The position numbers were made by a program, and so were the translations under genes. The notes under the pieces are model-generated. The model ran no database searches. It saw only the letters and a program-made list of their open reading frames with translations, and was not told the DNA's origin. DNA of 64,000 bases from Candidatus Aminicenantes bacterium. GTDB taxonomy: Bacteria; Acidobacteriota; Aminicenantia; Aminicenantales; Saccharicenantaceae. The stretch is from the NCBI GenBank assembly GCA_963813235.1, contig CAWEYF010000015.1, positions 283,003-347,002 on the forward strand, read 5' to 3'. Position 1 is the stretch's first letter, and every line of letters starts with the position of its first letter. Positions 15,732 through 44,004 of this stretch are shown in pieces.

Positions 15732-15788
15732 CCACGGGGGTTTCCCCCCTGGAAATTCAGACAATTCGGAAATTGGTATTGTGTCCCC
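15700..15788. repeat. perfect 21-bp inverted repeat with 47-nt spacer between convergent genes
   Basis: GGGGACACAATACCAATTTCC (15700-15720) is the exact reverse complement of 15768-15788. The spacer contains a GGGGG-TTT-CCCCC mini-hairpin (15736-15748). The left arm lies in the last codons of the aldolase. The right arm abuts the TAG of the minus-strand gene. Confidence 0.85.
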
Positions 15789-16783: not shown

Positions 16784-16804
16784 GATGAGCACGACGCTTG
16801 TCCT

Positions 16805-16825
16805 CCCCCCTTTGAAAAAGGGGGG
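16805..16825 (-). other. GC-rich hairpin between ffh and the LpxR-like gene, function unknown
   Basis: CCCCCCTTT-GAA-AAAGGGGGG: perfect 9-bp stem with a 3-nt loop, 60 nt downstream of the ffh stop. There is no U-tract, so it is not a canonical intrinsic terminator. Confidence 0.3.
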
Positions 16826-16884
16826 TCGGGGGGATTTTTCCCGCCTGGACTTCCTTCGATCAGGTCTTCCCATTGGGCCCACCG

Positions 16885-18207
16885 TCAACGCATTCGGGAG
16901 AGCATGTCCCGGAACATGGAGCCCTTCATCATCTTCCGCATTTCCGCGTACTGCTTGAGGAGCTGGTTGACCTCGTGGACCGGACGGCCGCTGCCCCTTG
17001 GCGATGCGCAGGCGCCGGCTCCCGTTGAGGATCTTCGGGTCCTCCCGTTCCGCGGGGGTCATGGAGCTGAGGATGGCCTCGAAATGGAGGACCTTGCGGT
17101 CGTCGACCTGGACCTTGGAAAGCCCCTTGAGCATCCCCGCCTTGGGGAGCATGCCGAGGATATTGGATAGGGACCCCATCTTCTTCATCTGACCGAGCTG
17201 TTTCCGGAAGTCCTCCAGGGTGAACTCCTGGCGCCGCAGTTTGCGGGCCGTCTCCTCGGCCTCTTCGAGATCGGCCTTCTCCTCGGCTTTCTCTATGAGG
17301 CTGAGGATGTCGCCCATGCCCAGGATGCGGGAGGCCATCCGGTCGGGGTGGAAGACCTCGAGCTTGTCGAACTTCTCGCCGACGCCGGCGAACTTGACCG
17401 GCTTCCCGGTGACGGAGACGATGGACAGGGCCGCCCCGCCCCTGGCGTCGCCGTCGAGCTTGGTCAGGATGACCGAGGTGATGCCGATCCTCTCCCCGAA
17501 CGCCTTGGCGCTCTTGACGGCATCCTGGCCTGTCATCGCGTCTCCGACATAGATGACCTCGACGGGGTCAAGGATGTCCCGGACGACCTTTAGCTCGTCC
17601 ATGAGCTCGTCGTCCACGTGGAGCCGGCCGGCCGTGTCGACGATCAGCGGGTCGAACGCCCTGTTCCGGGCGTGGAGAACGAGGTCCTTGAGGGCCTTTT
17701 CGGGGACGGCCATCTGGTCCGCCGTCATCTCGTAGAAAGGCAGGTCGAGCGACAACGCGATTGTCTTGAGCTGTTCCTGTGCGGCCGGCCGCTTGAGGTC
17801 GAAGGAGACCAGCAACGGGTTCCTGCCGATGCCCCGGACCCATCGGGCCAGCTTGCCGCAGGTCGTCGTCTTGCCGCTTCCCTGGAGCCCGACGAGCATG
17901 AATATGGACGGGGGCGCCGACGCAAAGGTCAGGGGCTTGTCGGTCCCTCCCAGGATGGCGGCGAGCTCGTCCCGAACGATCTTGATGACCTGCTGGGCGG
18001 GGCTCAGGCTCGAGAGAACCTCCTCCCCCAGGGCCTTCTCCCTGATCCTGGCCTCGAAGTCCCGGACGACCTTGTAGTTGACGTCCGCCTCGAGGAAGGC
18101 CAGTCGGATCATCTTCAGGGCCTCGGCCATGTTCTTTTCGGTGACCTTCCCTTCCCCCGGAGGAACTTCATCATCTTCTCGAGGCGGCCGGAAAGCTGGT
18201 CGAACAT
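16885..18207 (-). pseudogene. ffh: signal recognition particle protein Ffh, two single-base frame changes as assembled
   Basis: N-terminus MFDQLSGRLEKMMKFLRGKG (ATG 18207) is out of frame with VTEKNMAEALKMIRLAFLEADVNY (one A missing in GGGAAAGG, near 18145). GTPase motifs GLQGSGKTTTCGKLA and DTAGR are present. The M domain ...RRLRIAKG then needs a shift to read SGRPVHEVNQLLKQYAEMRKMMKGSMFRDMLSRMR* (one extra G in AAGGGG, near 16995). Restored length is 441 codons. Confidence 0.9.
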
Positions 18208-22956: not shown

Positions 22957-24230
22957 ATGTATGCGATTTCGGATAGGAAGGACCCCGACCATGGCCGAGA
23001 AGAAGAGCTTCTTCGGAGGAGACGGAAACGGACGATCATCATCCTGGGCGTCGTCCTCGTCATCGCCCTCGTCATCGTCTTCAACCTGAGGTCCCAACGG
23101 GAAAAGACGGTCAAGGTGACGATCGAGAAGGTCAAAGCGGCCGACCTGACCTCGATCATCTCGGCCTCGGGCGAGGTCAAGCCCAAGAAGAACGTCAACA
23201 TCAGCGCCCACGTCCCCGGCCGGATCATCAAGATCGGGGTCGAGGAGGGCGACGAGGTCAAGGCCGGGGATTTCCTCCTGAAGCTCGACTCGACCCAGTA
23301 CGAGGCCAACGCCGAGGGGAACCGGGCCGCCATCCGGTCCTTCAGGGCCCAGCTCATCCAGGCCGAGGCGCGGCTCCAGAAGGACAAGAACGCCTACGAG
23401 CGGCAGAAGAAGCTCTTCGACGAACAGCTCATCTCCAAGGACCAGCTCGAGACGGCCAAGCCCCAGTTCGACGTCTCGACCGCCCAGGTCCGGGCCATCC
23501 ACTCCCAGATCCAGCAGGCCGAGGCCTCGCTCAAGAGCACCATGGACAACCTCAACAAGACCACCTTCGTCTCGCCGATCGACGGCATGATCACCAGCCT
23601 CCGGGTCGAGGAGGGCGAGGTGGCCATCATCGGCACGATGAACAACCCCGGCACGGTCCTCCTGACCATCGCCGACCTGTCCGTCATGGAGGTCGAGGTC
23701 GAGGTGGACGAGACCGACGTCGTCGGCGTCGAGCTCGGCCAGACGGCCAACGTCCGGGTCGACGCCTATCCCGGAAACGGTCTTCAAGGGCAAGGTGACC
23801 GAGATCGGGAGCTCGGCCCTGCAGAAGACGCTGCCGCGACGACCCAGGAATCCAAGGACTTCAAGGTCGTCGTCACCCTGGACGACCCGTCCCGCAAGCT
23901 CAAGCCCGGCCTGTCCGCCTCGGCGGACATCATCACCGCCGAAAAAAAGGGGGTCCTGGCCGTCCCCATCTCCGCGCTCGTCCTGAGGGACAAGGCCGGT
24001 CGAGCGGGCAAGGACAAGCGAGACGGCCGGGGAAGAGGAAGGCGTCTACGTCGATCGAGAACGGCCGGGTCAAGTTCCAGCCGGTCGTCAAGGGCATCAC
24101 CGGCGGCATGAACATCGAGATCGTCTCCGGGCTCAAGGAAGGCCAGGAGATCGTGACCGGGCCGTACAACGCCCTCCGGGAACTCAAGGACGGGACGCTG
24201 ATCAAGGCCGACGAGAAGAAGGCGAAGTGA
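22957..24230 (+). pseudogene. MacA/HlyD-family periplasmic adaptor, frame-disrupted in the C-terminal third
   Basis: TM anchor TIIILGVVLVIALVIVF. Lipoyl-like domain (SAHVPGRIIKIGVEEGDEVKAGDFLLKLD), coiled coil, then VSPIDGMITSL. The sequence after about 23770 needs at least 3 shifts to read ...TFKGKVTEIGSSALQ...GVYVDRENGRVKFQPVVKGITGGMNIEIVSGLKEGQEIVTGPY...KAK* (stop 24228-24230). ATG 22991 has a better SD but is out of frame. Confidence 0.8.
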
Positions 24231-31001: not shown

Positions 31002-31121
31002 CCAGCAGCGGACCAGCACGCTCATCACCTCATGTTCGCCCGCATGAGGGTGTTCTGCTTGAGGAGAAGAACGCCGCCGGCATCAGAATAATTAGGACGG
31101 TGAACACGATGACCTGTCGCG

Positions 31122-31937
31122 CTATTGTTCGGTGCCGGCGATCTGGGCGAGCCGACACGTCGAGTCCTCGAGCGGCTTGAGGGAGACATCCGCGCCGGAG
31201 AAGCGCTCATAGTAGCCGAAAGGATTGTCGAGATCCCTGATGAGCATCAGGAGAAAGATCATCAGATAGGAGATGACGCCCACGAAGAACAGCGACTCAT
31301 AAAAAGGCTCGATCCTGACCAATATGAGCCCTAGGCAGAGAAGGCCGGTGATGATGTCGGCCAGCAAGTAGCCCGCGGAAACGAAGGACGTTTCCCGAAT
31401 GGTATGAATGCGGATGAGGGTGCGCCGGAGATTGCTCTGCTCCTGCTTCAGTCGGGCCAACAATGTCCCTTGAGTCCATTTTTCCATCACGGCGAACTGG
31501 GGGGTCAGAGCGTTCACGTGCTCCAGCAATTCTGCCGTGCGGTGCTTCTTATGGAACCACCCCAGAATATCGTTGCTAAGTTGCGATAGAAGGATCAGGC
31601 ACGGGCCGACGTCGGCTTCGGGTCTAGCCATCCTGATGCCGGAAACTTCCTGCGCCAGGTTCTCCAGGCACGCGCTCAATTCGCCCGGAAGACGCTCGCT
31701 TTCCTTGAAATCCGATAGGACGCCGCTCAGAAGAAACCCCATCAGGAAGACGTTGGCGGCTACGATCCCGGAGAATAACGGATTGATCGAGATCACTTCC
31801 CACCCCAGGAAGTGGACGACGAGTTTTGCGCATACAACTCCAACAACCACGGCGCTTACGCGCAGCAGAAGACGGTATCGGCTATGGATGGTCATCTTTG
31901 CCTTTCTCTGTCTGATCGGGTCGAACGAGGTTATCAC
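31122..31937 (-). CDS. hypothetical membrane protein (DUF4239/bestrophin-like by recollection)
   Basis: 271 aa. TM pairs at both ends flank a helical soluble middle. C-terminal ...LLMLIRDLDNPFGYYERFSGADVSLKPL resembles the DUF4239 'dld.Pf.G...vs..pl' pattern. Last gene of the minus-strand operon. Confidence 0.45.
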   Translation of the reverse strand: MITSFDPIRQRKAKMTIHSRYRLLLRVSAVVVGVVCAKLVVHFLGWEVISINPLFSGIVAANVFLMGFLLSGVLSDFKESERLPGELSACLENLAQEVSGIRMARPEADVGPCLILLSQLSNDILGWFHKKHRTAELLEHVNALTPQFAVMEKWTQGTLLARLKQEQSNLRRTLIRIHTIRETSFVSAGYLLADIITGLLCLGLILVRIEPFYESLFFVGVISYLMIFLLMLIRDLDNPFGYYERFSGADVSLKPLEDSTCRLAQIAGTEQ

Positions 31938-31992
31938 TGTGACCGTAAAGATGTCAAGGTTTTGGGCCCTGGCCCGATCGCTTCAGGGAGTG

Positions 31993-32679
31993 TCACTTGA
32001 TATCGACGGCCGTCTCGACCGTGAAGAACCTGTATTTCTTATAGACGACGGAAATCCGGGCATTCGCGATCTTATGATCGCCCGGGAGGATGTAGCCTTG
32101 CTCCGAATAGTTGCGGCTGGGGAACCGGAGCCCGTTCTTCTCGCGTCCGTATTCCGAAAAGGCCGTGATCTGCGGCTCGGCGCCCTGGCTCTTGGCGAAC
32201 TCTTCGATCATCTTGAAGTTCCGGAGGGATCTTTGGTCCCAGACGATCTTTAAGACGCTGCCGTCGTCCTCTTTGATCCAGATCCTCCCGTAAGGGTGCG
32301 TTTCGACGAGCTCCGGCCTGGGCGTCGCTTCGATGACCACGGTCTTTTCTTTACCGATCTTATCCTCTCCGATGAGTTTGTAATCATGAGCCAACTGCCA
32401 GGATTCGCTCAGCAGTCCGACCGGCCCGAAGAGAACGTTCTCATAGAGGAACATGACCGTCTGCAGGGGGGACTCCCGGATCTTGGTCTTTCGACCGTCG
32501 ACCGCGATAAGGTTGCGCTTCTCTTGCGTCTTTTTGTTCTTCCTGATGAGCTGATAATCGTAGAGATAGACCTTGGTATCCCGGGTAAAATGGACCGTCT
32601 CTTCCGTCACTTCCTCGAAACAGACAAAATCAATCGCGGCCTGCTCCAATCGCCGGCAATATTCCGCCGATTTCTTCAA
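31993..32679 (-). CDS. LolA-like (outer-membrane lipoprotein-sorting fold) periplasmic protein; listed start is TTG, true 5' end probably near 32793
   Basis: 228 aa, beta-rich. The pattern ...KLIGEDKIGKEKTVVIEATPRPE...YGRIWIKEDDGSVLKIVW... is typical of LolA_like/lipoprotein-sorting proteins. The same frame upstream encodes a signal-peptide-like ARNLILLAALCAVALQPNAQE but has no in-frame start (see findings). Confidence 0.5.
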   Translation of the reverse strand: MKKSAEYCRRLEQAAIDFVCFEEVTEETVHFTRDTKVYLYDYQLIRKNKKTQEKRNLIAVDGRKTKIRESPLQTVMFLYENVLFGPVGLLSESWQLAHDYKLIGEDKIGKEKTVVIEATPRPELVETHPYGRIWIKEDDGSVLKIVWDQRSLRNFKMIEEFAKSQGAEPQITAFSEYGREKNGLRFPSRNYSEQGYILPGDHKIANARISVVYKKYRFFTVETAVDIK

Positions 32680-32856
32680 GATTGCAGCCAGCCTCGACTG
32701 GTCGGTCCGCTCTTGAGCGTTCGGCTGGAGAGCGACGGCGCATAGTGCCGCGAGTAGGATAAGATTCCTGGCCGCCGAGAATGCGTGTCATCATCCCCCG
32801 CCGTTTCGAATGATAGGGCCGCCTCTTCGCCCCGTCAAGCCGCAATGGTTCGGACT

Positions 32857-33777
32857 TCAGAAGACGAACATGATCTCGGAAGCGATCACGTTATCCGAAA
32901 AGTTCATGTCGGGCCGGGTGGAGATCTTTTTCTTGTAATTCTCTCGGAATACCAGGAAGAGCTGTTTCTGGAGCGGGATCCTGATCTCTAGAAGAAAGTT
33001 GTGGTGGCGGTCGTGCCGTCCGAAGTTCCGGTTGGTCGCGATATCGGTGACGTAGCGTCTCCAGGCCAGCCGGTAGCGGACGAACAGGTTGAGGCCGTTG
33101 GGCCTGGCATAGCTGGCCGCGGCCATGACCTCGGGCTTTTTGTACGAATAATTGATCTCACGGGCGTTTTCGCGGCCCCAGGAGAATCCGATCCGCGGCG
33201 TCAGCGAGGGACTGATCTTGTAGTGCACTTCTGTAGCCCACGTATTCCTGGTCATATTGCGGCCCGGAGCGGTCAGCCCATAATCCTGCCGCTCGCGTTC
33301 GACCTCGAGCCTCAACGCGAGCGACTTCGAGAGGCTCACCCTGTAGAAGGCGCTCAAAACCCGGCTGTCGTAGAGGATATCACCGGATGACTGGCTCACA
33401 TAAAGCAGGCGGCCCGGGGCGGAGGACCATTCGACCCCGAGCCGATGTATGCCGGAGCGGAGTTCCAGCCCGCCCAGGGCCTGTACGTAGGTGGCGACCG
33501 TGTAATTTTGGTAGCGATTCAATCGCAAACTGAGGAAGGGGATCAGGGTTATCTTTTTGCCGAGCCGAAGATCGCCTTGGACCTGTCCACCCAACCCTGT
33601 GATCCAGTCCGGCTTGGATACGCCCAATTCCTGGAAGATATTGCTCTCGCGGGCCAGCCCCGCGCTCAAGCGGAATTCCCGAAAACGGAACGAGGCGCCC
33701 TCCAAGGGCATGGATAGAACGGCCAGGCCGATGAGCGCGGCCGCGAAGAATCTCATTTTTGCCGAGTCTCGTCTCAT
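32857..33777 (-). CDS. outer-membrane beta-barrel protein (family unassigned; possibly DUF560/Slam-like barrel)
   Basis: Signal peptide MRFFAAALIGLAVLSMPLEGA. Alternating hydrophobic pattern, many Y/R/N strand ends, and a C-terminal ...ASEIMFVF with terminal Phe (an OMP sorting signature). Confidence 0.6.
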   Translation of the reverse strand: MRRDSAKMRFFAAALIGLAVLSMPLEGASFRFREFRLSAGLARESNIFQELGVSKPDWITGLGGQVQGDLRLGKKITLIPFLSLRLNRYQNYTVATYVQALGGLELRSGIHRLGVEWSSAPGRLLYVSQSSGDILYDSRVLSAFYRVSLSKSLALRLEVERERQDYGLTAPGRNMTRNTWATEVHYKISPSLTPRIGFSWGRENAREINYSYKKPEVMAAASYARPNGLNLFVRYRLAWRRYVTDIATNRNFGRHDRHHNFLLEIRIPLQKQLFLVFRENYKKKISTRPDMNFSDNVIASEIMFVF

Positions 33778-33789
33778 GTCACGCTCCTT

Positions 33790-35070
33790 TCAAACAAGAT
33801 CGATATCCCGCTCAGCCAGGCTGATCAAGGTTTCAAAATGCGCGGCCTCCCCGGGCTGGATCGTGGCGCGGCAGGCCAGCCGCAAAAAGGCCGAAGCTCG
33901 ATACCAGGCGAGGGCCGGGTCGGCCAGGACACCTCCGCCGCTCTCATAGGCATCCTTGAAGAATCCGCCCAATCGAACATGCCGATCCGCCCTCCCGATG
34001 CTCTCCAATCCCCTGAGTTCGAGATGGGCCAAGAAATTGCCGGCGTCGCGCTCGGCGGGCGCCACGCAGGCCATGTCCAGGTCCAGGACGGTCATGATCC
34101 TTTTGTCGAAGAGGAGCTGCTTATCATAAAAATCGCCGTGGCCCGGATAATGGGGTCGGCGGGCCACGTCCATCTTCGCGGCCAGCCTGCCGAGAAGGCG
34201 GCGGACCGCCGACATCTCCTGGAATTCGATCAACTCAAGCGCCGAGGCCCAGCTTTGCAGGATGCCGAATTCTTCGTCCGGACCCTGGACGGGAAGGGGA
34301 AGCCCGATCGAGGCCCTGTGATAAGCGCAAAGAAGCCGTCCCGCTTCGGCGGAGGACCGCGTTGCCTTCGGCGAATCCAGCAGCTCGAAAACCGTTTTGC
34401 CGGCAGCCGGAGCTATCAGGGCGGCCCGAAGCTCTCCGCAATAGCCGATAGGAGCGGGGACTTCAAGGCCGCGACGCCCGTCAAGCCCGGCGGCCCGAAG
34501 AGCCCTGTGGATATCCAGGAGGCTCGTGGCGGCGTTTTCCAGGAAGACCTTAACATAAAAATGCGCGGACGCGTTTTCCCCGAGGCTTCCTTTGTACCTG
34601 AGCAGACATTTGCGGCCCGGCCAGTAGCTGAGAGGCTGGACGGCTCGCAGATGAAAGCCTCGCCATCCTGTCTCGGCGTCGTCGAGCACGGGCCCAATGA
34701 TGTTTCGGGCTTTAAAGGGGGAGGCTGCGATCCTCAGGTAGGGCATTCGATAATCGCTGGGGAAACGTTGGACATAGGCGTTCCATTCAGGGACATAGCT
34801 GGCCCGGGATGGGCAGGACGGCCGCCGAGGGCGCCCGGGCGGAAAGAGAAAGGCCACAGCCCAGGCCGTTCCCGTTCCATCCGTGATCTCATAGAGGAAG
34901 ATGAACATGTTGCCTGGCTTGGGCCAGGCTTTTAGGATCTTCGCAGAGCGGATCTCGCGGCCCTGGAAAAGATGCCGGCCGAGGATGTCGCGCGCCGCTT
35001 CCGGATCAGCCGCCTGTCGGAAGGCCCGAGCGAGCGGTGAGCCAGGGACATGGTCAAACATCGGGTTCAA
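33790..35070 (-). CDS. protein-kinase-like-fold phosphotransferase (APH / LPS-kinase-like)
   Basis: Catalytic-loop-like HGDFYDKQLLF followed by TVLDLDMAC (DxD/DFG-equivalent). 426 aa. Its 5' end overlaps the ABC exporter stop by 17 nt. Confidence 0.65.
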   Translation of the reverse strand: MNPMFDHVPGSPLARAFRQAADPEAARDILGRHLFQGREIRSAKILKAWPKPGNMFIFLYEITDGTGTAWAVAFLFPPGRPRRPSCPSRASYVPEWNAYVQRFPSDYRMPYLRIAASPFKARNIIGPVLDDAETGWRGFHLRAVQPLSYWPGRKCLLRYKGSLGENASAHFYVKVFLENAATSLLDIHRALRAAGLDGRRGLEVPAPIGYCGELRAALIAPAAGKTVFELLDSPKATRSSAEAGRLLCAYHRASIGLPLPVQGPDEEFGILQSWASALELIEFQEMSAVRRLLGRLAAKMDVARRPHYPGHGDFYDKQLLFDKRIMTVLDLDMACVAPAERDAGNFLAHLELRGLESIGRADRHVRLGGFFKDAYESGGGVLADPALAWYRASAFLRLACRATIQPGEAAHFETLISLAERDIDLV

Positions 35071-36910
35071 GCGTCGGAACGGCGGCGCGCTTGCGGCCTT
35101 TCTGGAGATTATAGACCTTCCGGAACCAGGCGCAGGATTCCAGGAGTTGGGGGTGCGTCCCCTGAGCGATCAGGCCTCCTTTATTGAGGACGAATATCCT
35201 GTCGGCTTCAGCGAGATCATGGAGGTCATGGGTGACGAAAAAGGTCGTGCACCTGCGCCGCAGCCGGGACAGGGCCTGCTTGATGTCTTCGACGCTGACC
35301 GCATCCAGCCTGGCAAAAAGCTCATCCACGAGCAGGATATCAAAATCCTTGACGAACGCCCTGGCCATGGCGATCCTTTGCTGCTGGCCGGAGGAAAGCG
35401 TCGTGCCTGTTTCGCTGACCTCGGTCTGATAACCCTTCGGCAAGCCCATGATGAACTCATGGGCATGGGCGCTCCCGGCCGCTTCTTCGATCTCCGCGGG
35501 TGTGGCCCCGGGCCTGCCATAGGCGATGTTTTCGGCCACGGTCGTCTTAAAAAGGATGGGCTCGGGGAGGACGACGGCGAACCGCTCGCGATAGGCTTCG
35601 ACATCATAGTCCCTGATATCGCGGCCATCGACCAGGATCTTCCCTTTCGTCGGGTCATAGATGCGCAGGAGGAGGTTGAGCAGCGTAGATTTCCCGGCCC
35701 CGCTCGGCCCGACGATGCCGATCAGCTTGCCGGAATCCACCTCGAAGCTGAGGTCTTTGATGGCCGGCCGACCTTCACTATATCTAAAACTGACATCGGA
35801 GAATTGGATCTCGCCCCGGAGCCGGTCGGGGACGGACGCGTTCGGCCTGTTTTGGATCGCTTCCTTGACGGAAAGAACCTCCATCACGCGTTCGCTGCAG
35901 GCCGCGACCCTGGACAGTCGTGCCGTGACCCGGGCCAACCGCCGCAGCGGACGATAGAACCCACGGAGGTAGGTCATGAAGACCAGCAGGTCGCCGGGGC
36001 TGAGGATCCCGAGCTTGGCCCGATAAGCTCCGAGGCCGAGAACCCCGCAGATCCCCACGGCCGTGATGAGGTCGACCGACCGGGTCATGTTGGCCTCCAG
36101 CCTTTTTGTCCGGAGGCTGAATTTCATATTTTTGCTGTTCTGGTCCGCGAATCGGTTGTCATGATATTCAGCCCTCGCGTAGGCCTGGATGACGCGTATG
36201 GCGCGAAGAGCTTCGGAGGCCGTAGCGGCTATCCGGCCCTCGTGGGCTCGGCTCTTCCTGGACGCCTGACGGATATTGCCGCTGAAGTGGAAGGAAACCA
36301 GGGCCAACGCCGGGAGGACGATCAAAGAAACAAGTGTGAGGAGGGGGTCCACGGCCAGCATGACAACGGGCATGCCGATCAGGATCAGGACTTCGCTGAC
36401 CGAAGTCATCATGGATTCCACGAGCATCTCCCGGAGCATGTTGATGTCGTTGGTGATGTTCGTGACGAGCTCGCCGATCGGCTTCTTATCGTGGAACTGA
36501 AGGGAAAGGCGCTGGATATGGGCGAAAAGCTTCCGGCGGATGCTGTAGACGATGCGATGACCGGCCGTGGCGACAAGGACGGTGTATCGGTAGCTGAAGA
36601 CGCCGTCAAGAATGATGACGGCGATGTACGCGGCGATCGACGCGCCCAGAATGGTTTCGGGCGAGGCCGAGCCGAACAAGTTCGCCAGGAGTCCGGTCTT
36701 GGGCAGGGGGCGCCGGATCAACACGTAGTCAAAAATGATCTTCAGCGGCCATGGCTGGGCCAGGATGAAAGCGGACTGGATCATGGCGCTCAACAGCCCC
36801 AGGATGAGAAGGCTCTTCTGGCTCTTGAGATAAGGTTTGAAATAGTGGAATACGCTTCCCGGGCGGTGTTTCTTGACCTCCCGGAGCATCTGGTTGAGCT
36901 GGACCCTCAC
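35054..36910 (-). CDS. fused TMD-NBD ABC exporter (MsbA/NdvA-type half transporter)
   Basis: 618 aa. Six-helix type I exporter TMD. Walker A GPSGAGKST, signature LSSGQQQRIAMARA, Walker B ILLVDE, H-loop FFVTHD. The Q-loop position is atypical (VVLPEPILF). GTGA overlap with the upstream GT4. Confidence 0.9.
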   Translation of the reverse strand: MRVQLNQMLREVKKHRPGSVFHYFKPYLKSQKSLLILGLLSAMIQSAFILAQPWPLKIIFDYVLIRRPLPKTGLLANLFGSASPETILGASIAAYIAVIILDGVFSYRYTVLVATAGHRIVYSIRRKLFAHIQRLSLQFHDKKPIGELVTNITNDINMLREMLVESMMTSVSEVLILIGMPVVMLAVDPLLTLVSLIVLPALALVSFHFSGNIRQASRKSRAHEGRIAATASEALRAIRVIQAYARAEYHDNRFADQNSKNMKFSLRTKRLEANMTRSVDLITAVGICGVLGLGAYRAKLGILSPGDLLVFMTYLRGFYRPLRRLARVTARLSRVAACSERVMEVLSVKEAIQNRPNASVPDRLRGEIQFSDVSFRYSEGRPAIKDLSFEVDSGKLIGIVGPSGAGKSTLLNLLLRIYDPTKGKILVDGRDIRDYDVEAYRERFAVVLPEPILFKTTVAENIAYGRPGATPAEIEEAAGSAHAHEFIMGLPKGYQTEVSETGTTLSSGQQQRIAMARAFVKDFDILLVDELFARLDAVSVEDIKQALSRLRRRCTTFFVTHDLHDLAEADRIFVLNKGGLIAQGTHPQLLESCAWFRKVYNLQKGRKRAAVPTLEPDV

Positions 36911-38121
36911 CGGGACGGTTCCTCCATCGCGGACCGGACAAGCTCAAGGATGGCTCGGGCGTTATGATCCCACGTCAAGCTTTTCGAGGATTCCCGAGCC
37001 CTTTCCCCCAGCTCTTGGCGCAGACGCGAGTCGGAACGCAGCAGCCGGAAACGCCGGGCCAGCGCCGCGACGTCTCCCGGCGGGTAGAGGAGAGCCGTCG
37101 TCCTGTTCTTGAGGACCTCGGCGATCTGGCCGACCCGGCTGGCGACGATCGCCCGGCCCGAGGCCATATATTCCGCGATCTTGAGCGGAGAAAAATAGAA
37201 CTCGGCCGAGGTGGGGTAGGGAGCGACGGCAACGTGCATCTTGGAGAGCCAGGCCGGAACGTCCTCATGCTTGATCATTCCCGCCCAATTGATGTTATCT
37301 TCGAAGCCCAAACGACGCGCCTTGGACTCGAGAGCCGGCCTTTCGGGGCCGTCCCCCACAATGAGGAGCCGGGCATCCGGGACGTGCTTGAGCAGGAGCC
37401 GAAAAGCTTCCAGCAGGTCGAGAAGGCCATGCCACGGCTTGAGGCTTCCCACGAAGCCGACGACGAAGGGCTGGGCCGCGGGGGGGGAATCCACGGAGAT
37501 CGCGTGGAACATTTCGTCGGCGGCATTGGGCAGGACGGCAACGTGCTCGGGCTTCGTGCCGCACGAAACGGCGAAATTCCGGATCGCGCCCGAGACGGCA
37601 ATGACCCGGTCGGCTTCGGCCAACAGGGTCGACTCTATGGCGGAGGCAAAATCTTCGAGCTCCATCTGACGATGCTGTTTGTGCTCATCGGTCAGGGGGG
37701 CGTTGACTTCGAGAAGGTAAGGAATCTTTTTCCGGCGGGCGAACTGAAGCCCGGCGAAGCTGAACAGACTCATCCTCTCGAGGACGGCGTCGATGGGGGC
37801 TTCCTTATGGAGACGCTCCAGCTTCCGGCTCAGTTCGATGTTCCGGGCCAGGTCCAGGAAAACGCGTCCCTTTTCCAGCCCGGCCTTGGCCTGGATGACC
37901 TGGCTTATCCTCTGAGAAAGGGATTCCTTGGGAAGCGGCTCGATGGATACCCCGGGAACACTATCATCCTCCCGGGTCCGGGCAGCTAGGAGCGTTGTAT
38001 CGATGCCGACTCGGACCAAGGCCGCCGCCAGCTGACGCAAATGAACCGAGGATCCCATGTGGCCATCGACCGGGATCCCCCGGTCGGCGCAGATGTAGAC
38101 GATGTGACGCCGAGGGGTCAT
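36907..38121 (-). CDS. GT4-family glycosyltransferase
   Basis: 404 aa. N-terminal IVYICADRGIPVDGHMGSSVHLRQLA. C-terminal GT-B retaining-type E-x7-E region (PYPTSAEFYFSPLKIAEYMASGRAIVAS). ATGA overlap on the upstream side. Confidence 0.85.
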   Translation of the reverse strand: MTPRRHIVYICADRGIPVDGHMGSSVHLRQLAAALVRVGIDTTLLAARTREDDSVPGVSIEPLPKESLSQRISQVIQAKAGLEKGRVFLDLARNIELSRKLERLHKEAPIDAVLERMSLFSFAGLQFARRKKIPYLLEVNAPLTDEHKQHRQMELEDFASAIESTLLAEADRVIAVSGAIRNFAVSCGTKPEHVAVLPNAADEMFHAISVDSPPAAQPFVVGFVGSLKPWHGLLDLLEAFRLLLKHVPDARLLIVGDGPERPALESKARRLGFEDNINWAGMIKHEDVPAWLSKMHVAVAPYPTSAEFYFSPLKIAEYMASGRAIVASRVGQIAEVLKNRTTALLYPPGDVAALARRFRLLRSDSRLRQELGERARESSKSLTWDHNARAILELVRSAMEEPSR

Positions 38122-39392
38122 GCCTTCCTCCGGGGTCCGGGAGGCCGTGATCCTTTATAATTTCGGGCGGATGAGGCCAGGAGGCGACGCAGGCGGAAGA
38201 CATTCCGACGGATGTCGAAGTCTCTCTCGGCCTTTTCGCGGCCGCGCCGAGAAAGGCGTCGGCGCTGCCGGGGATGCCGGAGCAGGCCCGCCATGGCCTT
38301 GGCCAGGCCTTCCGAGTCCTTCTGCGCAACGATAAGGCCGCATTTTCCTTTGTCGAGGATCTCCGGGATGCCGACGACATCGGTGGAGATCACCGGGAGG
38401 CCTGTAGCCATGGCTTCCAGCAGGACGGTGGGCAAAGCATCGCGATTCCCGTCGTCGGCGATGATGGCGGGGAGGACAAAAACGGCGGCTTCCTGCATGC
38501 TTCTTAGAACCACGTCCTGGGGCAGCCCGCCCAGCAGTTTGACCGTTCGGCCGAGGTTGAGTTTTAAAATGAGCGACTTCAGGGCAATCTTCTCCTCACC
38601 GTCGCCGATGATCCGGCAATCCAGCTTAACGCCCTGTCTTTGAAGGATATCGATAGCCTCGATGAGATACCGAAAGCCCTTTTTCTCCACCAGCCGTCCC
38701 ACGGAAAGGACGACCGCGTCGCTTCGCGGGGATTTCGGCGGCAGAAAGATATCGAGGTTGACGCCATTGTAGAGACGGACGATCTTTGGCCGGCAGGCCG
38801 GCGGGAGATTCTTGCGGAGATAGTCCCGGTTGGAGCGGGAGACGGTCACCAGGAAAGCCGAGTTCATCGCGATGTCCCGGAGAAGCCTCCAATGCACGTC
38901 CTTATGATAAATGTCCTTTGCGTGCGCGGTAAAACTGTAGGGAATGCCCGTCATCATCGAGGCATACATCGTCACCAGGGCCGGTTCATCGGCAAAATGA
39001 GCATGGAGGTGATGCAGCTGGAGGTCAAGGGCTGTTTCGGCGATGAAGGCCGCCCGCATGAAATACTTGAGGCCGGAGTCCGTCGGGCAGGCCAAGGCAT
39101 GCCGAAGGGCTCGGCCGTACCCTTTCCGATGCTCCTGGACGCGCGCCCGGATCTGCCGCAGGTGGCTCCAAAAATCGGAGTAGCCGGGGCTCGGGAGGTA
39201 ACGGATGCCCGCGCGCAGTTTGGACAAATGGGGGTGGAAGCGGCCTTCCGTAGGGGGGCGGATCGAGAAGATTTCGACTTCCAGGCCTTGCCGTTCAAGC
39301 TCCAGGATCTCATTAAGGACAAAGGTCTCCGAGAAGCGGGGAAACATCTTCAGGACATATCCGATGCGAATCCCCTTGGCCTTCTGAGTCAT
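38118..39392 (-). CDS. GT4-family glycosyltransferase (WcaL-like N-terminus)
   Basis: 424 aa. IGYVLKMFPRFSETFVLNEILELERQGLEVEIFS is the WcaL-type start. C-terminal ...DALPTVLLEAMATGLPVISTDVVGIPEI. ATGA overlaps at both ends. Confidence 0.85.
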   Translation of the reverse strand: MTQKAKGIRIGYVLKMFPRFSETFVLNEILELERQGLEVEIFSIRPPTEGRFHPHLSKLRAGIRYLPSPGYSDFWSHLRQIRARVQEHRKGYGRALRHALACPTDSGLKYFMRAAFIAETALDLQLHHLHAHFADEPALVTMYASMMTGIPYSFTAHAKDIYHKDVHWRLLRDIAMNSAFLVTVSRSNRDYLRKNLPPACRPKIVRLYNGVNLDIFLPPKSPRSDAVVLSVGRLVEKKGFRYLIEAIDILQRQGVKLDCRIIGDGEEKIALKSLILKLNLGRTVKLLGGLPQDVVLRSMQEAAVFVLPAIIADDGNRDALPTVLLEAMATGLPVISTDVVGIPEILDKGKCGLIVAQKDSEGLAKAMAGLLRHPRQRRRLSRRGREKAERDFDIRRNVFRLRRLLASSARNYKGSRPPGPRRKA

Positions 39393-40597
39393 GGTTCGAC
39401 TCCGGCATCATCGGATCGAGGCTCTCCCAGAAGCTCTCCCAAATGGCGAACGGCGTTCGTGACCCCGTCGAACGTCAAACCGGGAACGGGCGATCCCGGC
39501 GGGGGCGTGGAAAGGATCTTCATGACCTTCCGACTAATCAGCTCCGGTGTCAGATGGTTCGGATGGATCATTTCGATCAGGCCGCGGCCGGCGAGAACTT
39601 TTGCCCTGATGAGCTGCTCCCGCCGCGGAAAAGCGCGGGGTATGACGAGAAGCTTCTTTTTCAGCGAAAGGGCTTCATACACGGTGTTGTAGCCTCCCAT
39701 GGCTACGACAAGGTCGGAGGCCCGGAGCCAATCCGCAAAATCGAAAACATAGTAGTGAATAAAGACATTCGGGGCGCCGCCGAAGGAGGCCACGATCTTG
39801 TTTCTCTTGGCAAAGGGGAAGAACGGGCCCAAAAGGATGAAGTGCTGGGTATCTTTAAGCCCCGGACAATCGACAACGCCCTTGAGGTAGGTCTGGATCA
39901 AGGCGAATCCGTCTTCGCCTCCCCCGGCGGTCACCGTAACCATCGGCGTCCCGGCATGGGGAAAGGATTTCGGATCGGACGGGGTCGGGTGCCGGAACGA
40001 GAGGGTGCCCAGGAATCCGCAGAAACGAGTTTTTCGAGCGGCTGCCGGCGGGAAGCCATAGGCCTCCACGGGGTTGAATAGCTCAGGCCGGCTGAAGACA
40101 AGAATCCGGTCGTAGAGCCGGCAAAGGGCCTCATAGTCTCCCCGCTTAGCCCAAGTGGACCTGATGTGCCGGGGTGAATCCAGAACATCCCTTAGCAGGA
40201 GCACGGTCTTGATAGGCCTTCCTTCCGCCCTGATCCGTTCGAGAAGAGGCAGAAGCTCGCCGTTCATGCCCCGAGGGACGTTGTCCACGATGAATAGGTC
40301 CGGCCGGAAGCTCTCGACGGCGGCGCCGAGGACGTTCGAGCGGATCGAGGTCAGCATGCTCATGGGAACGCCGAGGCGGCGCGCCTTGTATTTCTCGGGC
40401 CCTATCTTGGTCACTCCCGGCACGCGGACGAAATCGATCCTTCTTGAGGGTGGAATGATCCCGGGCTTTTCCAGTCCGGTCAAGATCAGACACCGCGCGT
40501 CCGAAAAGGCCTGGGTCAGCCCTCTGGCCAATTTGGCCACGCGCTGGGTGTGTCCGAGCCCCAACGTGTCATGTGTGTACAGGGCGATTCGCGGCAT
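39389..40597 (-). CDS. GT-B glycosyltransferase of the COG4671 / GT28 (MurG-like) type
   Basis: 402 aa. N-terminal MPRIALYTHDTLGLGHTQRVAKLARGL. C-terminal nucleotide-sugar-binding-like ...LVVAMGGYNTVYEALSLKKKLLVIPR. First gene of the minus-strand operon. Confidence 0.7.
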   Translation of the reverse strand: MPRIALYTHDTLGLGHTQRVAKLARGLTQAFSDARCLILTGLEKPGIIPPSRRIDFVRVPGVTKIGPEKYKARRLGVPMSMLTSIRSNVLGAAVESFRPDLFIVDNVPRGMNGELLPLLERIRAEGRPIKTVLLLRDVLDSPRHIRSTWAKRGDYEALCRLYDRILVFSRPELFNPVEAYGFPPAAARKTRFCGFLGTLSFRHPTPSDPKSFPHAGTPMVTVTAGGGEDGFALIQTYLKGVVDCPGLKDTQHFILLGPFFPFAKRNKIVASFGGAPNVFIHYYVFDFADWLRASDLVVAMGGYNTVYEALSLKKKLLVIPRAFPRREQLIRAKVLAGRGLIEMIHPNHLTPELISRKVMKILSTPPPGSPVPGLTFDGVTNAVRHLGELLGEPRSDDAGVEP

Positions 40598-40742
40598 AAA
40601 TCTCCCTCAAAACGTCTTCATGGGGAATTAGGCTCCATTACCTTAGCGGTACGATGCGGATAAGTCAATAGCCTTCAGGGGTGAAAAACAAGGGGGGGGA
40701 AGGCATGTCCCTGCTGATTTTTCGCCCTCCTTTGGCTATACT

Positions 40743-41489
40743 ATGGTCTCCATGGCCGAACTGAAGTCCCCGGACCGCTGCCCTCAGAACGATCCCTCGG
40801 TCGTCGCCGAATTGATCGGGGCGTCGAAGGTCTTCAAGACCGGCGGGCAGGAGATCGTCGCCCTCCAAAGAACCGACCTGCTCTTGAAAAAAAACCAGCT
40901 TCTCCTGATCATCGGACCCTCGGGTTCCGGAAAGACGACCTTGCTCTCGCTCCTCGGCTGTGTCCTCTATCCTACGGAAGGTTACGTCTGCATCCAGGGC
41001 GTCAACACCAAGGACCTCAACGATCGACAGCTGGCCAAGCTCCGCCGGACCCTCATCGGGTTCGTGTTTCAGAACTTCAACCTGATCTCACCTCTCAATT
41101 CCGAAGAGAACATCATGGTGCCCCTCCTCCTGAACAAATTTCCCAAAGACGCCGTCCGGGATAAAGTCCGGCGCGCTCAGGAAATGGTCGGGCTGACCCA
41201 TCGAAGAAGGTCCCTCCCCAGACAGCTGTCCGGCGGCGAGCAGCAGAGGGTGGCCATCGCCCGGGCCCTGGTCTCCGACCCCGCCATCATCCTCTGCGAC
41301 GAGCCAACGGCGGCGTTGGACTCCGGTTCCCTCGAGACGATCATGAAGGAGCTCCGCCATCTGGCCGATCTTGGTAAATCCGTGGCGGTCGTCACGCACG
41401 ACCCCCGACTCGAAAAATACGCGGATAAGATCATCTACATGGAAAACGGGAACGTCGTCGAAAAAAAGGGCAGGGATGGAACGCCATGA
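40743..41489 (+). CDS. DevA-family ABC exporter ATP-binding subunit
   Basis: Walker A GPSGSGKTT, Q-loop [45 protein letters not shown]. The second ATG (40752, MAELKS) is an alternative start. ATGA overlap with the next gene. Confidence 0.85.
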   Translation: MVSMAELKSPDRCPQNDPSVVAELIGASKVFKTGGQEIVALQRTDLLLKKNQLLLIIGPSGSGKTTLLSLLGCVLYPTEGYVCIQGVNTKDLNDRQLAKLRRTLIGFVFQNFNLISPLNSEENIMVPLLLNKFPKDAVRDKVRRAQEMVGLTHRRRSLPRQLSGGEQQRVAIARALVSDPAIILCDEPTAALDSGSLETIMKELRHLADLGKSVAVVTHDPRLEKYADKIIYMENGNVVEKKGRDGTP

Positions 41490-42445
41490 AAAGACCACGG
41501 ATGAAATTTCTCGGCTGGGCCCTGGCAACCCTGGCGGTCGGGTTCACGGCGGGGTGCCGATCGGAGACGGCCTCCCCGCCGGAGGACAAGCCGAAGATGG
41601 ACATGTCCCCCGCTCAGGTCGTGGGGCTCGGCCGGATCGAACCGGAGCTCAAGATCCTCGATCTCCAGAGCGAGGTATCCGGGACCGTGACGGGGATCTT
41701 CTTCCGCGCCGGCGACATCGCGGCTAAGGGCCAGACCCTCGTGGAGGTTTCAAGCGCAATCGAAAAGGCCGGGCTCGAGCTGAAAGCGGCGCAGGTCCAA
41801 TCCCAGCGTTCCCAGATCGACGCGGCCAAGGCCTCCCTGGGGTCGTCGCGCGCCAGGGCGGAAAATGCCCGGCTTTCCTTCATCCGGGCCAAGACCCTCA
41901 CCGAACAGGGCGCCCAGGCCCTGTCCATGCTCGACGCGGCCAGGGCCGACTATGATTCGCTGCTCGAGGACATCAAACGGCTCGAGGCGGGCGTACTAGC
42001 GGCCGAAGACCTCCTGAAGCAGTATCAGGCCGATCAAAGGCTGGCGCAGGCGGAATACGACCGGCGGTTCATCAAGGCTCCATCCGATGGGCAGATCCTG
42101 TCCCTGGAGATCACGGTCGGCTCGCTCATCTCGCCTGAGATGCCCTTCGGGACATTCGCCCCGAACAGCCCGCTCATCGCCCGGGTCGAGATCGACGAGC
42201 TGTTCGCCGGCCTCATCCAGCCGGGACAGAAAGCCTACGTCCGGGCGCCGGGGATGACGGAGGCGCTGGCCCGGGGCAAGGTCACATTCGCCGGCCCTTC
42301 CCTGAGAAAGAAATCTCTGTTCTCCGACGACGTCGGGTCTCTGGAAGACCGGCGCGTCCGGGAGATCCGGATCACCCTGGATCCCGGATCCCGCATCCTG
42401 TTCGGGACCCGGGTGGAGGGCGTCATCCTGCTCAAGGAGTCCTGA
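41486..42445 (+). CDS. DevB-family membrane-fusion lipoprotein
   Basis: Lipobox LAVGFTAGC. VVGLGRIEPELKILDLQSEVSGTVTGIFFRAGDIAAKGQTLVEV matches the DevB-type 'GRIEP' N-terminal signature. A coiled-coil middle is followed by a beta-barrel-like C-terminus. Confidence 0.8.
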   Translation: MKRPRMKFLGWALATLAVGFTAGCRSETASPPEDKPKMDMSPAQVVGLGRIEPELKILDLQSEVSGTVTGIFFRAGDIAAKGQTLVEVSSAIEKAGLELKAAQVQSQRSQIDAAKASLGSSRARAENARLSFIRAKTLTEQGAQALSMLDAARADYDSLLEDIKRLEAGVLAAEDLLKQYQADQRLAQAEYDRRFIKAPSDGQILSLEITVGSLISPEMPFGTFAPNSPLIARVEIDELFAGLIQPGQKAYVRAPGMTEALARGKVTFAGPSLRKKSLFSDDVGSLEDRRVREIRITLDPGSRILFGTRVEGVILLKES

Positions 42446-42454
42446 CGGCCCGCC

Positions 42455-43576
42455 ATGCTGCGATTCGCCTTCCGTTTCATCACCTACGACAAGGCCAAAT
42501 CCATCGGCGTCGTCTTGGGCATCGTCATTTCCACGTTCCTCGTGGGCCAGCAAACCGGGATATTCCTGTTCCTGACAGGGGCCATGGCCTCGCTCGTGGA
42601 CAACACCCGGACCGATCTCTGGATCGTCGACAACAAGACGACCAACGTCAACGCCCTCGGCCCGATCGACGTACGGATCGGACGTCAGCTCGAGTCCGTG
42701 CCGGGCGTCCGGAAAGCCTATCCGTTCATCGTGGCCGGAGGGACGGCCAAGTTCGAGGCGGGGCAGTCCGCGCCCGTCCAGATCATCGGCGTCCAGCCGC
42801 CGAGCTTCCGCGGCGGCCCGTGGCGGATCGTCAGCGGCGCCCTGACCGATCTTCTCGAAGAGGGGGCGGTTTCCGTCGACGTCTTCGAGCGGAAGAACCT
42901 GAACAACGCCGGGATGGGAACGTCGTTCGAGATCAACGGCCGGCGGGCGCATGTCGCCGTGGTGAGCCGCGGCGTCCGGGGATTCGGAGGAATCTTCATG
43001 TTCACGACGGTGTCCCGGGCCCGGGAATTCGGCGGCATCCCCACTAATAAGGTCAGCGCCTTCCTTGTCGAAACCCAGGCGGAGGCCGATCTTCGAGCCA
43101 TCCGGGACCACATCAACGCCTCGATCTTCGGGGTTCGGGCCTGGACCAAGAAGGATTTTTCGCGGGCCACGGTGTCCACCATCTTAGCGACGAGCGGCAT
43201 CGCGCTGTCCATCGGGACCCTGATCATCTTCGCGGTCATCGCCGGGATGATCATCATCGGCCTGACCATGTACTCGGCGGCCGTCGACCGGCTCCGGGAT
43301 TACGGAACGCTCAAAGCTATCGGGGCCGACAACCGGTATATCCGGAAGCTGATCATGGCCCAAGCGCTCATCTTCGGACTCGTCGGCTACGGGATCGCCG
43401 TCTTTTTCATCCAGGGATTCCGGAGCGGGATCGCCAAGTCCGGGATCCTTTTCGATTACAGCCCGGAGATCAAGATCGGGTTTTTCGTCATCACGATCCT
43501 GATCGCCCTGGCCGGCGCGGCCTTCGCCATGCGCCGCATCGCCAAGATCGAGCCCGCTTCGGTCTTTCGCACCTGA
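42455..43576 (+). CDS. DevC-family (MacB/FtsX-type) ABC exporter permease
   Basis: 373 aa. TM1 (SIGVVLGIVISTFLVG), then a large periplasmic domain, then a three-helix FtsX-type C-terminus (...IFAVIAGMIIIGLTMYSAAVDRLRDYGTLKAIGA...). Confidence 0.8.
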   Translation: MLRFAFRFITYDKAKSIGVVLGIVISTFLVGQQTGIFLFLTGAMASLVDNTRTDLWIVDNKTTNVNALGPIDVRIGRQLESVPGVRKAYPFIVAGGTAKFEAGQSAPVQIIGVQPPSFRGGPWRIVSGALTDLLEEGAVSVDVFERKNLNNAGMGTSFEINGRRAHVAVVSRGVRGFGGIFMFTTVSRAREFGGIPTNKVSAFLVETQAEADLRAIRDHINASIFGVRAWTKKDFSRATVSTILATSGIALSIGTLIIFAVIAGMIIIGLTMYSAAVDRLRDYGTLKAIGADNRYIRKLIMAQALIFGLVGYGIAVFFIQGFRSGIAKSGILFDYSPEIKIGFFVITILIALAGAAFAMRRIAKIEPASVFRT

Positions 43577-43590
43577 CAAAGGAGGACATC

Positions 43591-44004
43591 ATGACGTTCA
43601 AAGAAACGTTGATCCTGTACGGGGTCACCCTCGCGGTCTTTTTCCTGATCGATATGATCTGGCTTGGCCTGGTGGCCAAGGGCTTCTACCGGCGGCACTT
43701 GGGCGGCTTCCTCAGCCCCAATGTCCGCTGGGGCGCGGCATTCCTCTTTTACCTGCTCTATATCGTCGGCCTGCTCGTCTTCGTCGTCCGCCCCGCTCTG
43801 CTGCGTGGCGCGCCGCTCGAAGCGCTGGTCTTCGGGGCTCTGTTCGGGCTGATCTGCTACGCGACGTACGATCTGAGCAATATGGCGACGCTCAAGAATT
43901 GGCCGCTGATCGTGACCGTGGTCGACCTCGTTTGGGGAACGGTCCTGGGCGGGGTCGTATCGCTCCTGAGCACCGTCATCGGCCGTACCTGGCTCAAGCT
44001 CTGA
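43591..44004 (+). CDS. small four-helix membrane protein (DUF2177-like by recollection)
   Basis: 137 aa. AAGGAGG SD. MTFKETLILYGVTLAVFFLIDMIWLGLVAKGFY... Starts 15 nt after the DevC-type gene. Confidence 0.5.
   Translation: MTFKETLILYGVTLAVFFLIDMIWLGLVAKGFYRRHLGGFLSPNVRWGAAFLFYLLYIVGLLVFVVRPALLRGAPLEALVFGALFGLICYATYDLSNMATLKNWPLIVTVVDLVWGTVLGGVVSLLSTVIGRTWLKL

Follow-up and report, generated by a model that had tools for sequence, protein, structure and literature searches.

The window analysed here is the whole 64,000-nt stretch of a Candidatus Aminicenantes genome (contig CAWEYF010000015.1), and within it our subject is a block of six genes on the minus strand, 32857-40597, encoding three glycosyltransferases (GTs), an ATP-binding cassette (ABC) exporter, a kinase and a small outer-membrane (OM) beta-barrel. 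Comparison with related loci indicates that these six genes form a conserved unit that recurs as a cassette in many uncultured bacteria and of which no member has been studied, and its gene content suggests a system of the ABC-exporter-dependent glycan export kind. We give a probability of roughly 55% to the reading that the cassette is an uncharacterised accessory pathway in which a secreted or surface glycan, probably phosphorylated and anionic, depends on the ABC exporter for its export. An earlier sequence-only reading of the region had proposed something larger, a self-contained route parallel to Lpt and Lol in which a soluble lipid carrier (LolA-like) and a MacB-type pump (DevABC) worked together with the cassette genes. 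That proposal is not supported, since the LolA-like and DevABC genes are beside the cassette in none of the other loci compared. Co-conservation does support the smaller idea within it, that of a unit dedicated to assembling and exporting a glycoconjugate and equipped with an OM barrel of its own.

Co-conservation had been set beforehand as the test of the proposed locus, and it tied the kinase, the ABC exporter and the barrel to the three GTs and left out everything else. Loci were gathered from relatives of the barrel, from relatives of the kinase (to 24-34% identity) and from a metagenome scan with the kinase alignment, which added 80 loci; the ORFs (open reading frames) called in 96 loci were searched by iterative profiling that started from the window's proteins. 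On contigs with barrel relatives all six genes recur in unchanged order (GT28-like, GT4, GT4, ABC, APH, barrel). Upstream of the kinase gene, 6.5 kb or more is visible in 31 loci; of these, the GT28-like, GT4, GT4, ABC and APH kinase genes stand in constant order and on one strand in 22 by a strict count and in 24 once two ORF-overlap artefacts are corrected, and this order persists across kinase identities of 24-90%. The GT28-like gene is the first cassette gene in 29 loci. Under our definition of the cassette (GT28-GT4-GT4-ABC-kinase) the window is a member, and its type of barrel is common to 13 loci.

The sixth position of the cassette is more variable, and the comparison indicates that the OM partner is interchangeable. 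For this count we used the 36 loci that have the ABC gene followed by the kinase gene and sufficient downstream sequence, and an OM barrel gene directly follows the kinase gene in 22 of them (13 small, 6 Alginate_exp and 3 OMP_b-brl_4). Where the small barrel gene occurs in relatives it is always after the kinase gene, and a homologous small barrel keeps this place even at ~25% identity (L008, L018, L020, L025). AlgE-type replacements (Alginate_exp, 490-620 aa, often with periplasmic DUF5666 domains at the N-terminus) are seen in L022, L041, L042, L045, L051, L053 and L064, sometimes accompanied by a separate 210-aa DUF5666 protein, while in L027, L028 and L030 an 890-aa CarboxypepD_reg + OMP_b-brl_4 protein replaces the small barrel. 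Other genes attached to the cassette in relatives include one for UDP-glucose dehydrogenase directly upstream (L011, L041, L053), a GT4-methyltransferase after the barrel in some, and, in some, ORFs that look sulfotransferase-like from their sequence. In 12 of 29 loci, L008, L011, L013, L018, L041 and L042 among them, a histidine kinase and response regulator pair abuts the GT28-like gene on its upstream side, and several of the regulators are sigma-54 activators; the window's own sub-clade lacks this pair. A search around the cassette for a conserved small ORF that could encode a precursor peptide was negative, those present in L001, L002, L003 and L010 being mutually unrelated.

When 185,579 species representatives were scanned with the barrel alignment, L006 was the one locus obtained, though the scan was pattern-limited and is weak evidence of rarity. 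A search of plasmids with the kinase returned nothing beyond Manganitrophus and Paracoccus, as partial or low-identity matches. Part of the cassette travels more widely: a pair consisting of the GT28-like gene and a GT4 gene of the gene 2 type is common on megaplasmids of Azospirillum, Ensifer and Mesorhizobium and occurs also in Manganitrophus (Nitrospirota), with phosphatase or deacetylase partners on the megaplasmids in place of the ABC exporter, kinase and barrel. Loci with the pair, from cultured Alphaproteobacteria and from Nitrospirota, are L012 (an Azospirillum thermophilum plasmid), L013 (Ca. Manganitrophus), L014 and L015 (Ensifer, Mesorhizobium), and among the partners there are a histidine phosphatase, a polysaccharide deacetylase, a radical SAM protein, an alginate-lyase-family protein, extra APH kinases or a 900-aa ABC protein.

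Within the window all twelve listed ORFs were found in place, and the G+C content, ~65% across the window, is 0.58-0.63 in the 30-54 kb stretch. The six cassette genes are tightly packed, with junctions of 4, 4, 4 and 8 nt of overlap followed by a gap of 12 nt before the barrel gene. From ORF ends and start codons, the 4-nt overlaps described in the sequence-only reading were all confirmed, three of them ATGA (39389-39392 between genes 1 and 2, 38118-38121 between genes 2 and 3, and one in the divergent pump genes) and one GTGA (36907-36910, between gene 3 and the ABC exporter gene). The fifth overlap was revised: a TTG start at 35070 had given the kinase gene 17 nt of overlap (35054-35070), and because database homologues begin MFD the start is most likely the ATG at 35061, with an 8-nt overlap (ATGTTTGA). 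Taken together, the gene layout marks 32857-40597 as one translationally coupled operon. The operon had first been drawn down to 31122, and this extension was given up, given that the 177-nt gap after the barrel gene (32680-32856) contains the region's best sigma-70-like match (a consensus match only) and that an indel separates the window from L006 at the LolA-like gene. Upstream, inspection by eye of the 145-nt divergent intergenic region revealed no canonically spaced sigma-54 promoter.

The barrel was modelled with 14 strands (mean predicted local distance difference test, pLDDT, 81; predicted template modelling score, pTM, 0.74). It has the general features of an OM beta-barrel, namely an even strand number, a signal-peptide-like helix at residues 6-21 and an invariant C-terminal F306, and its closest structures in the PDB are the monomeric sugar channels OmpG and CymA, at a template modelling (TM) score of ~0.6 with a porin match probability of 1.0. 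Of 82 invariant strand residues 54 would face the lumen, 22 of the 54 being charged, a rough count from strand parity only. The model supports the fold called in the sequence-only reading but a family label was not upheld, since every Pfam match is sub-threshold (SlipAM at 18.8 bits against 22, and DUF2490 too). The protein falls outside Slam/SlipAM (PF04575, DUF560), as the match spans only part of the barrel and 306 aa leaves no room for the N-terminal tetratricopeptide repeats (TPR) of that family. The barrel family is rare: relatives number 8 in a word-indexed set of 5.8 billion proteins, one of them labelled Acidobacteriota, and in a profile search (HMMER, 1.84 billion representatives) 94 proteins passed E≤1e-3, of which 5 passed E≤1e-30.

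For most of the other proteins, profile searches bore out the families first assigned: a GT28_C-like GT, two GT4s, a fused ABC protein and an APH-fold kinase in the cassette, and an ABC ATPase, a HlyD-type adaptor, an FtsX permease and DUF2177 on the divergent side. The gene 1 product matches Glyco_tran_28_C at E=6e-10 and gives only weak NCBIfam matches (MGT, MJ1255, MurG), and a PDB sequence search with it had no significant match. The first GT4 (Glycos_transf_1, E=1e-37) has EpsE as its top NCBIfam model at 204 bits, below the cut-off of 400, and is 41-44% identical in distant loci; the second has stp3 at 130 bits, below 442. In distant loci the ABC exporter is 37-44% identical. None of its Walker A, signature, Walker B-Glu and H-loop motifs is disrupted, and its top NCBIfam matches are MsbA_rel and MsbA. 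It reaches no NCBIfam equivalog cut-off for MsbA, NdvA/ChvA, HepA or PglK, scoring 393.8 bits against 602 for MsbA (TIGR02203) and 325.4 against 867 (PRK11176), 313 against 733 (PRK13657) and 236 against 585 (TIGR01192, chvA) for the glucan exporters, and 325 against 725 for HepA.

The kinase is placed in the APH/ELK fold by Pfam (PF01636, 41.8 bits against a gathering cut-off of 23.2, E=1e-10). Residues K171, H308, D310, Q315, D327 and N342 are invariant in 15 sequences and comprise the ATP-binding Lys, the catalytic HxD loop and the metal-binding Asp, the last followed by an invariant N-F-L-A-H motif. A PDB sequence search found nothing significant (best E ~0.9). The kinase model (pLDDT 92) has as its top PDB matches mycobacterial maltokinase (4u94/5jy7) and glucosamine kinase (6hwj), all of which share the N-terminal cap, with APH(9) and other small-molecule kinases among the further matches. 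The likeness to maltokinase is at a TM score of ~0.5 and 15-16% sequence identity, and no TreS or GlgE gene lies near. Relatives of the kinase also occur in fused or repeated forms, as a GT4-kinase fusion (P0024, 740 aa), as tandem double kinases of 735-740 aa (P0020 and P0032; 8632-10839 of L010) and as two adjacent kinase genes (8634-11308 of L011).

Table 1. Features of the cassette and its surroundings, with positions in the window.
Feature	Position	Strand	Basis
Cassette gene 1: GT-B glycosyltransferase with GT28 C-terminal domain, MurG/MGT-like, 402 aa	39389-40597	-	Pfam Glyco_tran_28_C
Cassette gene 2: GT4 glycosyltransferase, 424 aa	38118-39392	-	Pfam Glycos_transf_1
Cassette gene 3: GT4 glycosyltransferase, 404 aa	36907-38121	-	Pfam Glyco_trans_1_4 + Glyco_transf_4
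Cassette gene 4: fused transmembrane and nucleotide-binding domain ABC exporter, MsbA/Sav1866 fold, 618 aa	35054-36910	-	Pfam ABC_membrane + ABC_tran
Cassette gene 5: APH/ELK-fold kinase with N-terminal cap domain, maltokinase-like, 423 aa	33790-35061	-	Pfam APH
Cassette gene 6: small OM beta-barrel with signal peptide, C-terminal ...MFVF, 306 aa	32857-33777	-	Model
Divergent intergenic region, 145 nt; synteny with closest relative stops inside	40598-40742		
LolA-like ORF, apparently frameshifted in signal-peptide region (upstream piece ~32680-32790)	31993-32679	-	Sub-threshold Pfam LolA_like
Membrane protein, 271 aa	31122-31937	-	Marginal Bestrophin-like (formerly DUF4239) Pfam match, E=0.1
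DevA/MacB-type ATPase	40743-41489	+	Profile search
HlyD-type adaptor	41486-42445	+	Profile search; ATGA overlap 41486-41489 with ATPase gene
FtsX/MacB permease	42455-43576	+	Profile search
DUF2177 membrane protein	43591-44004	+	Pfam, E=2e-45
Cyclic beta-1,2-glucan synthase (NdvB/ChvB/Cgs type) with GT2, glucoamylase-like and two GH94 domains, 2907 aa	44150-52873	+	

The closest relative, L006, lies in a metagenome-assembled genome (MAG) that is a GTDB representative and shares 92% identity with the window across the cassette, and comparison with it separates the cassette from the genes on either side (Table 1). In L006 the gene for the 271-aa protein, 91% identical to that of the window, directly follows the barrel gene and there is no LolA-like gene at the matching position, so the LolA-like gene with its flanks (window ~31937-32856) is an indel between the two genomes. 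On the other side, the alignment ends at window position 40673, within the intergenic region, and L006 has a 687-aa protein, sulfatase/LtaS-like by sequence, where the window has DevABC; the pump therefore seems to face the cassette by accident of rearrangement. Further out (11869-12428 of L006 against ~31003-31128 of the window), L006 carries an insert of ~1.1 kb, missing from the window, between the 271-aa gene and a convergent CDP-alcohol phosphatidyltransferase gene, with two small overlapping ORFs of 92 and 94 aa whose arrangement is toxin-antitoxin-like by layout only.

Across the 96 loci the LolA-like protein, DevC and DUF2177 had zero matches, the 271-aa protein and the DevB profile matched L006 only, and the matches to DevA were of the generic ABC ATPase kind. 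Two of the labels first given to these proteins also weakened. The LolA-like protein falls short of PF17131 (24.2 bits against a cut-off of 30) and, described earlier as periplasmic, has no signal peptide as encoded, and the DUF4239-like label of the 271-aa protein was left marginal. The LolA-like gene has the lowest G+C of the block (0.54), and upstream of its ORF an out-of-frame ATGATG is followed by a signal-like stretch in the frame of the ORF (ARNLILLAALCAVALQ; ARNLILLAALCAVALQPNAQ; ~32680-32790), suggestive of a 1-nt frameshift or of faulty assembly at the 5′ end. A second irregularity of this sort is found elsewhere in the window, where a 780-aa ORF (15788-18130, minus strand) contains SRP54/Ffh at residues 2-379 and, at 449-779, the whole of an LpxR lipid-A deacylase barrel; the LpxR part has its own signal-like segment and the Ffh C-terminus (3′ end of ffh near ~16900) is abnormal after 'RIAKG', so that this is likely a frameshift or assembly error removing the ffh stop codon and not a real fusion. 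Because of these two cases it is suggested that the assembly carries indel errors.

The divergent trio does have the three-part architecture of ATPase, adaptor and FtsX/MacB_PCD permease that is also seen in DevBCA and MacAB-TolC, and it misses the cut-offs of the heterocyst-glycolipid exporter DevBCA (TIGR02982/TIGR02971/TIGR01185), with DevA at 180 against 296 bits, DevB at 80 against 129 and DevC at 42 against 290. Close relatives of the permease number more than 1000, with sequences from Aminicenantes MAGs and Bacteroidota among them. We found the trio in three other genomes, in contexts unrelated to the cassette: among amino-acid catabolism genes (L097), with DUF2177 in an Aminicenantaceae MAG, where DUF2177 adjoins the pump on the opposite side, and followed by a TolC-like outer membrane efflux protein (OEP) gene in Hymenobacter. 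No link to glycolipid genes was found in the contexts examined, and in no other locus of the 96 is the trio adjacent to the cassette. By its family profile and distribution it is best described as an ordinary, widespread, stand-alone tripartite pump of the MacB/DevC type. Parts of a second tripartite pump, unrelated to the cassette, lie elsewhere in the window as a TolC-like OEP protein (7416-8762, plus strand) and a second HlyD-type adaptor (22957-24111, plus strand), and the stretch of L006 syntenic with these efflux genes has DevA- and DevB-like ORFs, 38% and 25% identical.

Starting 146 nt after DUF2177 is a gene that the sequence-only reading had not mentioned, for a cyclic beta-1,2-glucan synthase (Cgs). 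In no other locus examined was Cgs adjacent to the cassette or to a DevABC-type pump. These comparisons mark the LolA-like gene, the 271-aa protein, DevABC, DUF2177 and Cgs as neighbours of the cassette and not components of it. Another glycosyltransferase locus of the window, a GT4 and GT2 gene pair at 60039-62287 (minus strand), is ~20 kb from the cassette.

From the families and structural models we propose that the cassette would act in four steps. The GT28-like enzyme and the two GT4 enzymes would assemble a short glycan on the cytoplasmic side of the inner membrane, and the maltokinase-like kinase would phosphorylate a sugar, either on the product, making it anionic, or as a precursor sugar. 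The MsbA-fold ABC exporter would then carry the product over the inner membrane, and the 14-strand barrel, with its conserved charged interior, would pass it through the outer membrane. That the OM porin is interchangeable favours export across the outer membrane, and a decorated, probably anionic secreted glycan fits the UDP-glucose dehydrogenase, GT4-methyltransferase, sulfotransferase-like ORFs and AlgE-type barrels of relatives better than a membrane lipid does.

Several points weigh against this proposal. The cassette has no characterised homologue in the libraries and literature searched, and literature searches on COG4671, MsbA with GT and APH, AlgE-like with ABC, and DUF5666 found no description of it. 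It encodes no priming polyprenyl-phosphate transferase, polymerase, periplasmic adaptor or outer-membrane polysaccharide export (OPX) protein. The cargo of MsbA-fold exporters also includes lipids, peptides and drugs, antibiotic kinases (e.g. APH(9), Mph) are also similar to the kinase, and the match to OmpG and CymA is generic for 14-strand barrels at a TM score of ~0.6. There is no recognised barrel in 14 of the 36 loci counted, and the loci include near-duplicates (L003/4/5/17, L008/9, L027/28/30), so that the counts exceed the number of independent observations.

A more specific form of the glycan proposal is possible, and taken as a whole we hold it only tentatively. It would make the cassette a previously undescribed minimal glycan route in which an MsbA-fold exporter is combined with a stand-alone, interchangeable barrel (14-strand, AlgE-type or large OMP), with no polysaccharide co-polymerase (PCP) or OPX protein, no synthase and no polyprenyl priming enzyme. 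The maltokinase-like kinase would be obligatory and would yield a phospho-oligosaccharide or phosphoglycan. Uncultured Acidobacteriota, Nitrospirota, Verrucomicrobiota and others would widely possess such a route, which would often be under an adjacent two-component system, sigma-54-dependent in several loci.

The absence of a priming enzyme can be viewed differently, as it makes a pre-existing lipid acceptor attractive. The GT28-like enzyme could glycosylate a membrane lipid that the GT4s extend and the kinase phosphorylates, with the ABC exporter flipping it and the barrel inserting or exposing it in the outer membrane. Lipid acceptors are typical of GT28 enzymes such as MurG, monogalactosyldiacylglycerol (MGDG) synthase and UgtP, the best NCBIfam matches of the exporter are MsbA_rel and MsbA, with MsbA and PglK as precedents for flipping, and the barrel has its weak SlipAM match. 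However, the cassette's conserved genes include none for lipid synthesis, an acyltransferase or a periplasmic carrier, the LolA-like gene being unique to the window and apparently frameshifted. The AlgE-type porins that replace the barrel in relatives are known for soluble polyanionic polysaccharide, and the kinase fold is nearest to free-sugar kinases. For these reasons we consider a glycolipid product unlikely.

The resemblance of the kinase to APH(9), Mph and corramycin kinases, and weakly to LxmK, raises the question of whether the cassette modifies and expels a small molecule or peptide, in self-resistance or detoxification, with the GTs and kinase inactivating it and the ABC exporter and barrel expelling it. 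The weak MGT (macrolide GT) matches of the GT28-like protein agree with this, as do the drugs and peptides among the cargo of MsbA-fold exporters. Against it, no conserved biosynthetic or precursor-peptide gene is nearby, the cassette has three GTs, two of which are GT4, and the UDP-glucose dehydrogenase, AlgE-type porins and sulfotransferase-like ORFs of relatives suggest a glycan, leaving this a rather improbable use of the cassette.

The sequence-only reading had itself named a more mundane alternative, a waa-like block for the inner or outer core of lipopolysaccharide (LPS) with WaaG-like GT4s, a WaaP-like kinase and MsbA. The two share the logic that a product is glycosylated and phosphorylated on the cytoplasmic side before an MsbA-type flip, and the LpxR homologue in the 15788-18130 ORF suggests that lipid A is produced. 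Yet no Waa or MsbA model is reached at its cut-off (the ABC exporter has 394 against 602 for MsbA), there is no match to Waa, RfaP or KdkA in Pfam or NCBIfam, where the kinase matches APH and not the Kdo/WaaP kinase family, and neither a GT9 heptosyltransferase nor a GT30 Kdo transferase is present. The cassette is also rare and patchy (1 locus in 185,579 species representatives by the pattern-limited scan, 8 barrel homologues), and it has its own OM porin, which LPS core synthesis does not need, all of which makes a core block very improbable. Lastly, Cgs (GT2 + GH94) lies 3.5 kb away, NdvA/ChvA exporters share the ABC fold and the barrel's matches include the cyclodextrin channel CymA, but a role as cyclic beta-1,2-glucan accessory, with the ABC exporter as the NdvA/ChvA partner of Cgs, the kinase and GTs decorating the glucan and the barrel releasing it, is scarcely credible when Cgs is beside the cassette in no other locus, including the 92%-identical L006, the NdvA/ChvA scores are far short (313 vs 733, 236 vs 585), and DevABC and DUF2177 intervene on the strand opposite to the cassette.

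The routes known for bacterial glycans to leave the cell are few, namely Wzx/Wzy, ABC-2 transporters with OPX proteins, synthases with a porin and, for LPS, Lpt. The export pathway proposed for the cassette resembles ABC-dependent capsule and O-antigen systems (KpsMT, Wzm/Wzt) in that a glycan finished in the cytoplasm is exported at the expense of ATP. Those systems use an ABC-2 permease with a separate ATPase, whereas the cassette exporter is a fused MsbA-fold half-transporter, and no Wzz/PCP or Poly_export/OPX genes were found in or beside the cassette or the relatives examined, which places it outside the capsule pathway. AlgE-type porins, OmpG and CymA offer a likeness in their use of a stand-alone barrel as the OM exit or entry of a glycan. 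The synthase-dependent AlgE systems have a synthase controlled by cyclic di-GMP; the cassette instead has an ABC exporter and lacks an AlgK/TPR partner. It also differs from composite OPX/beta-barrel translocons, as far as these were met in a literature search not aimed at such systems.

Other parallels concern the exporter and the kinase. NdvA/ChvA, which works with Cgs (here near in the window), is an MsbA-fold exporter for a soluble glycan made in the cytoplasm, and unlike the cassette those systems have no dedicated kinase or barrel. The WaaP/MsbA step and the PglK/Wzk flippases share cytoplasmic glycosylation, with or without phosphorylation, followed by MsbA-fold transport; the cassette differs in reaching none of these family cut-offs, in its maltokinase-like kinase and in having its own OM barrel. 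Mycobacterial maltokinase (Mak/Pep2) and the actinobacterial glucosamine kinase resemble the cassette kinase in fold, N-terminal cap included. The nearest published analogue is the msbA2 operon of Sinorhizobium meliloti (SMb21188-SMb21191), where GT genes are co-transcribed with an MsbA-type exporter and an unidentified polysaccharide has been proposed as product and as exported cargo (PMC3687685). GT genes and an MsbA-type exporter are common to both, while the msbA2 operon has an acyltransferase and, unlike the cassette, neither kinase nor OM barrel. We considered it as an orthologue and rejected it, since the ABC exporter alone matches, at 29% identity, and the region has no GT28-like match.

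The present analysis removes the idea of a Lol/Lpt-like pathway joining the LolA-like carrier, the DevABC pump and the cassette genes. What stands in its place is a cassette that combines an MsbA-fold exporter, its own OM porin and a putative sugar kinase, and that recurs in environmental lineages without genetic systems. If its product were identified, a compact and portable export route would be added to those known, its six genes plausibly movable to another host, and this would help explain the envelope or matrix chemistry of poorly known phyla.

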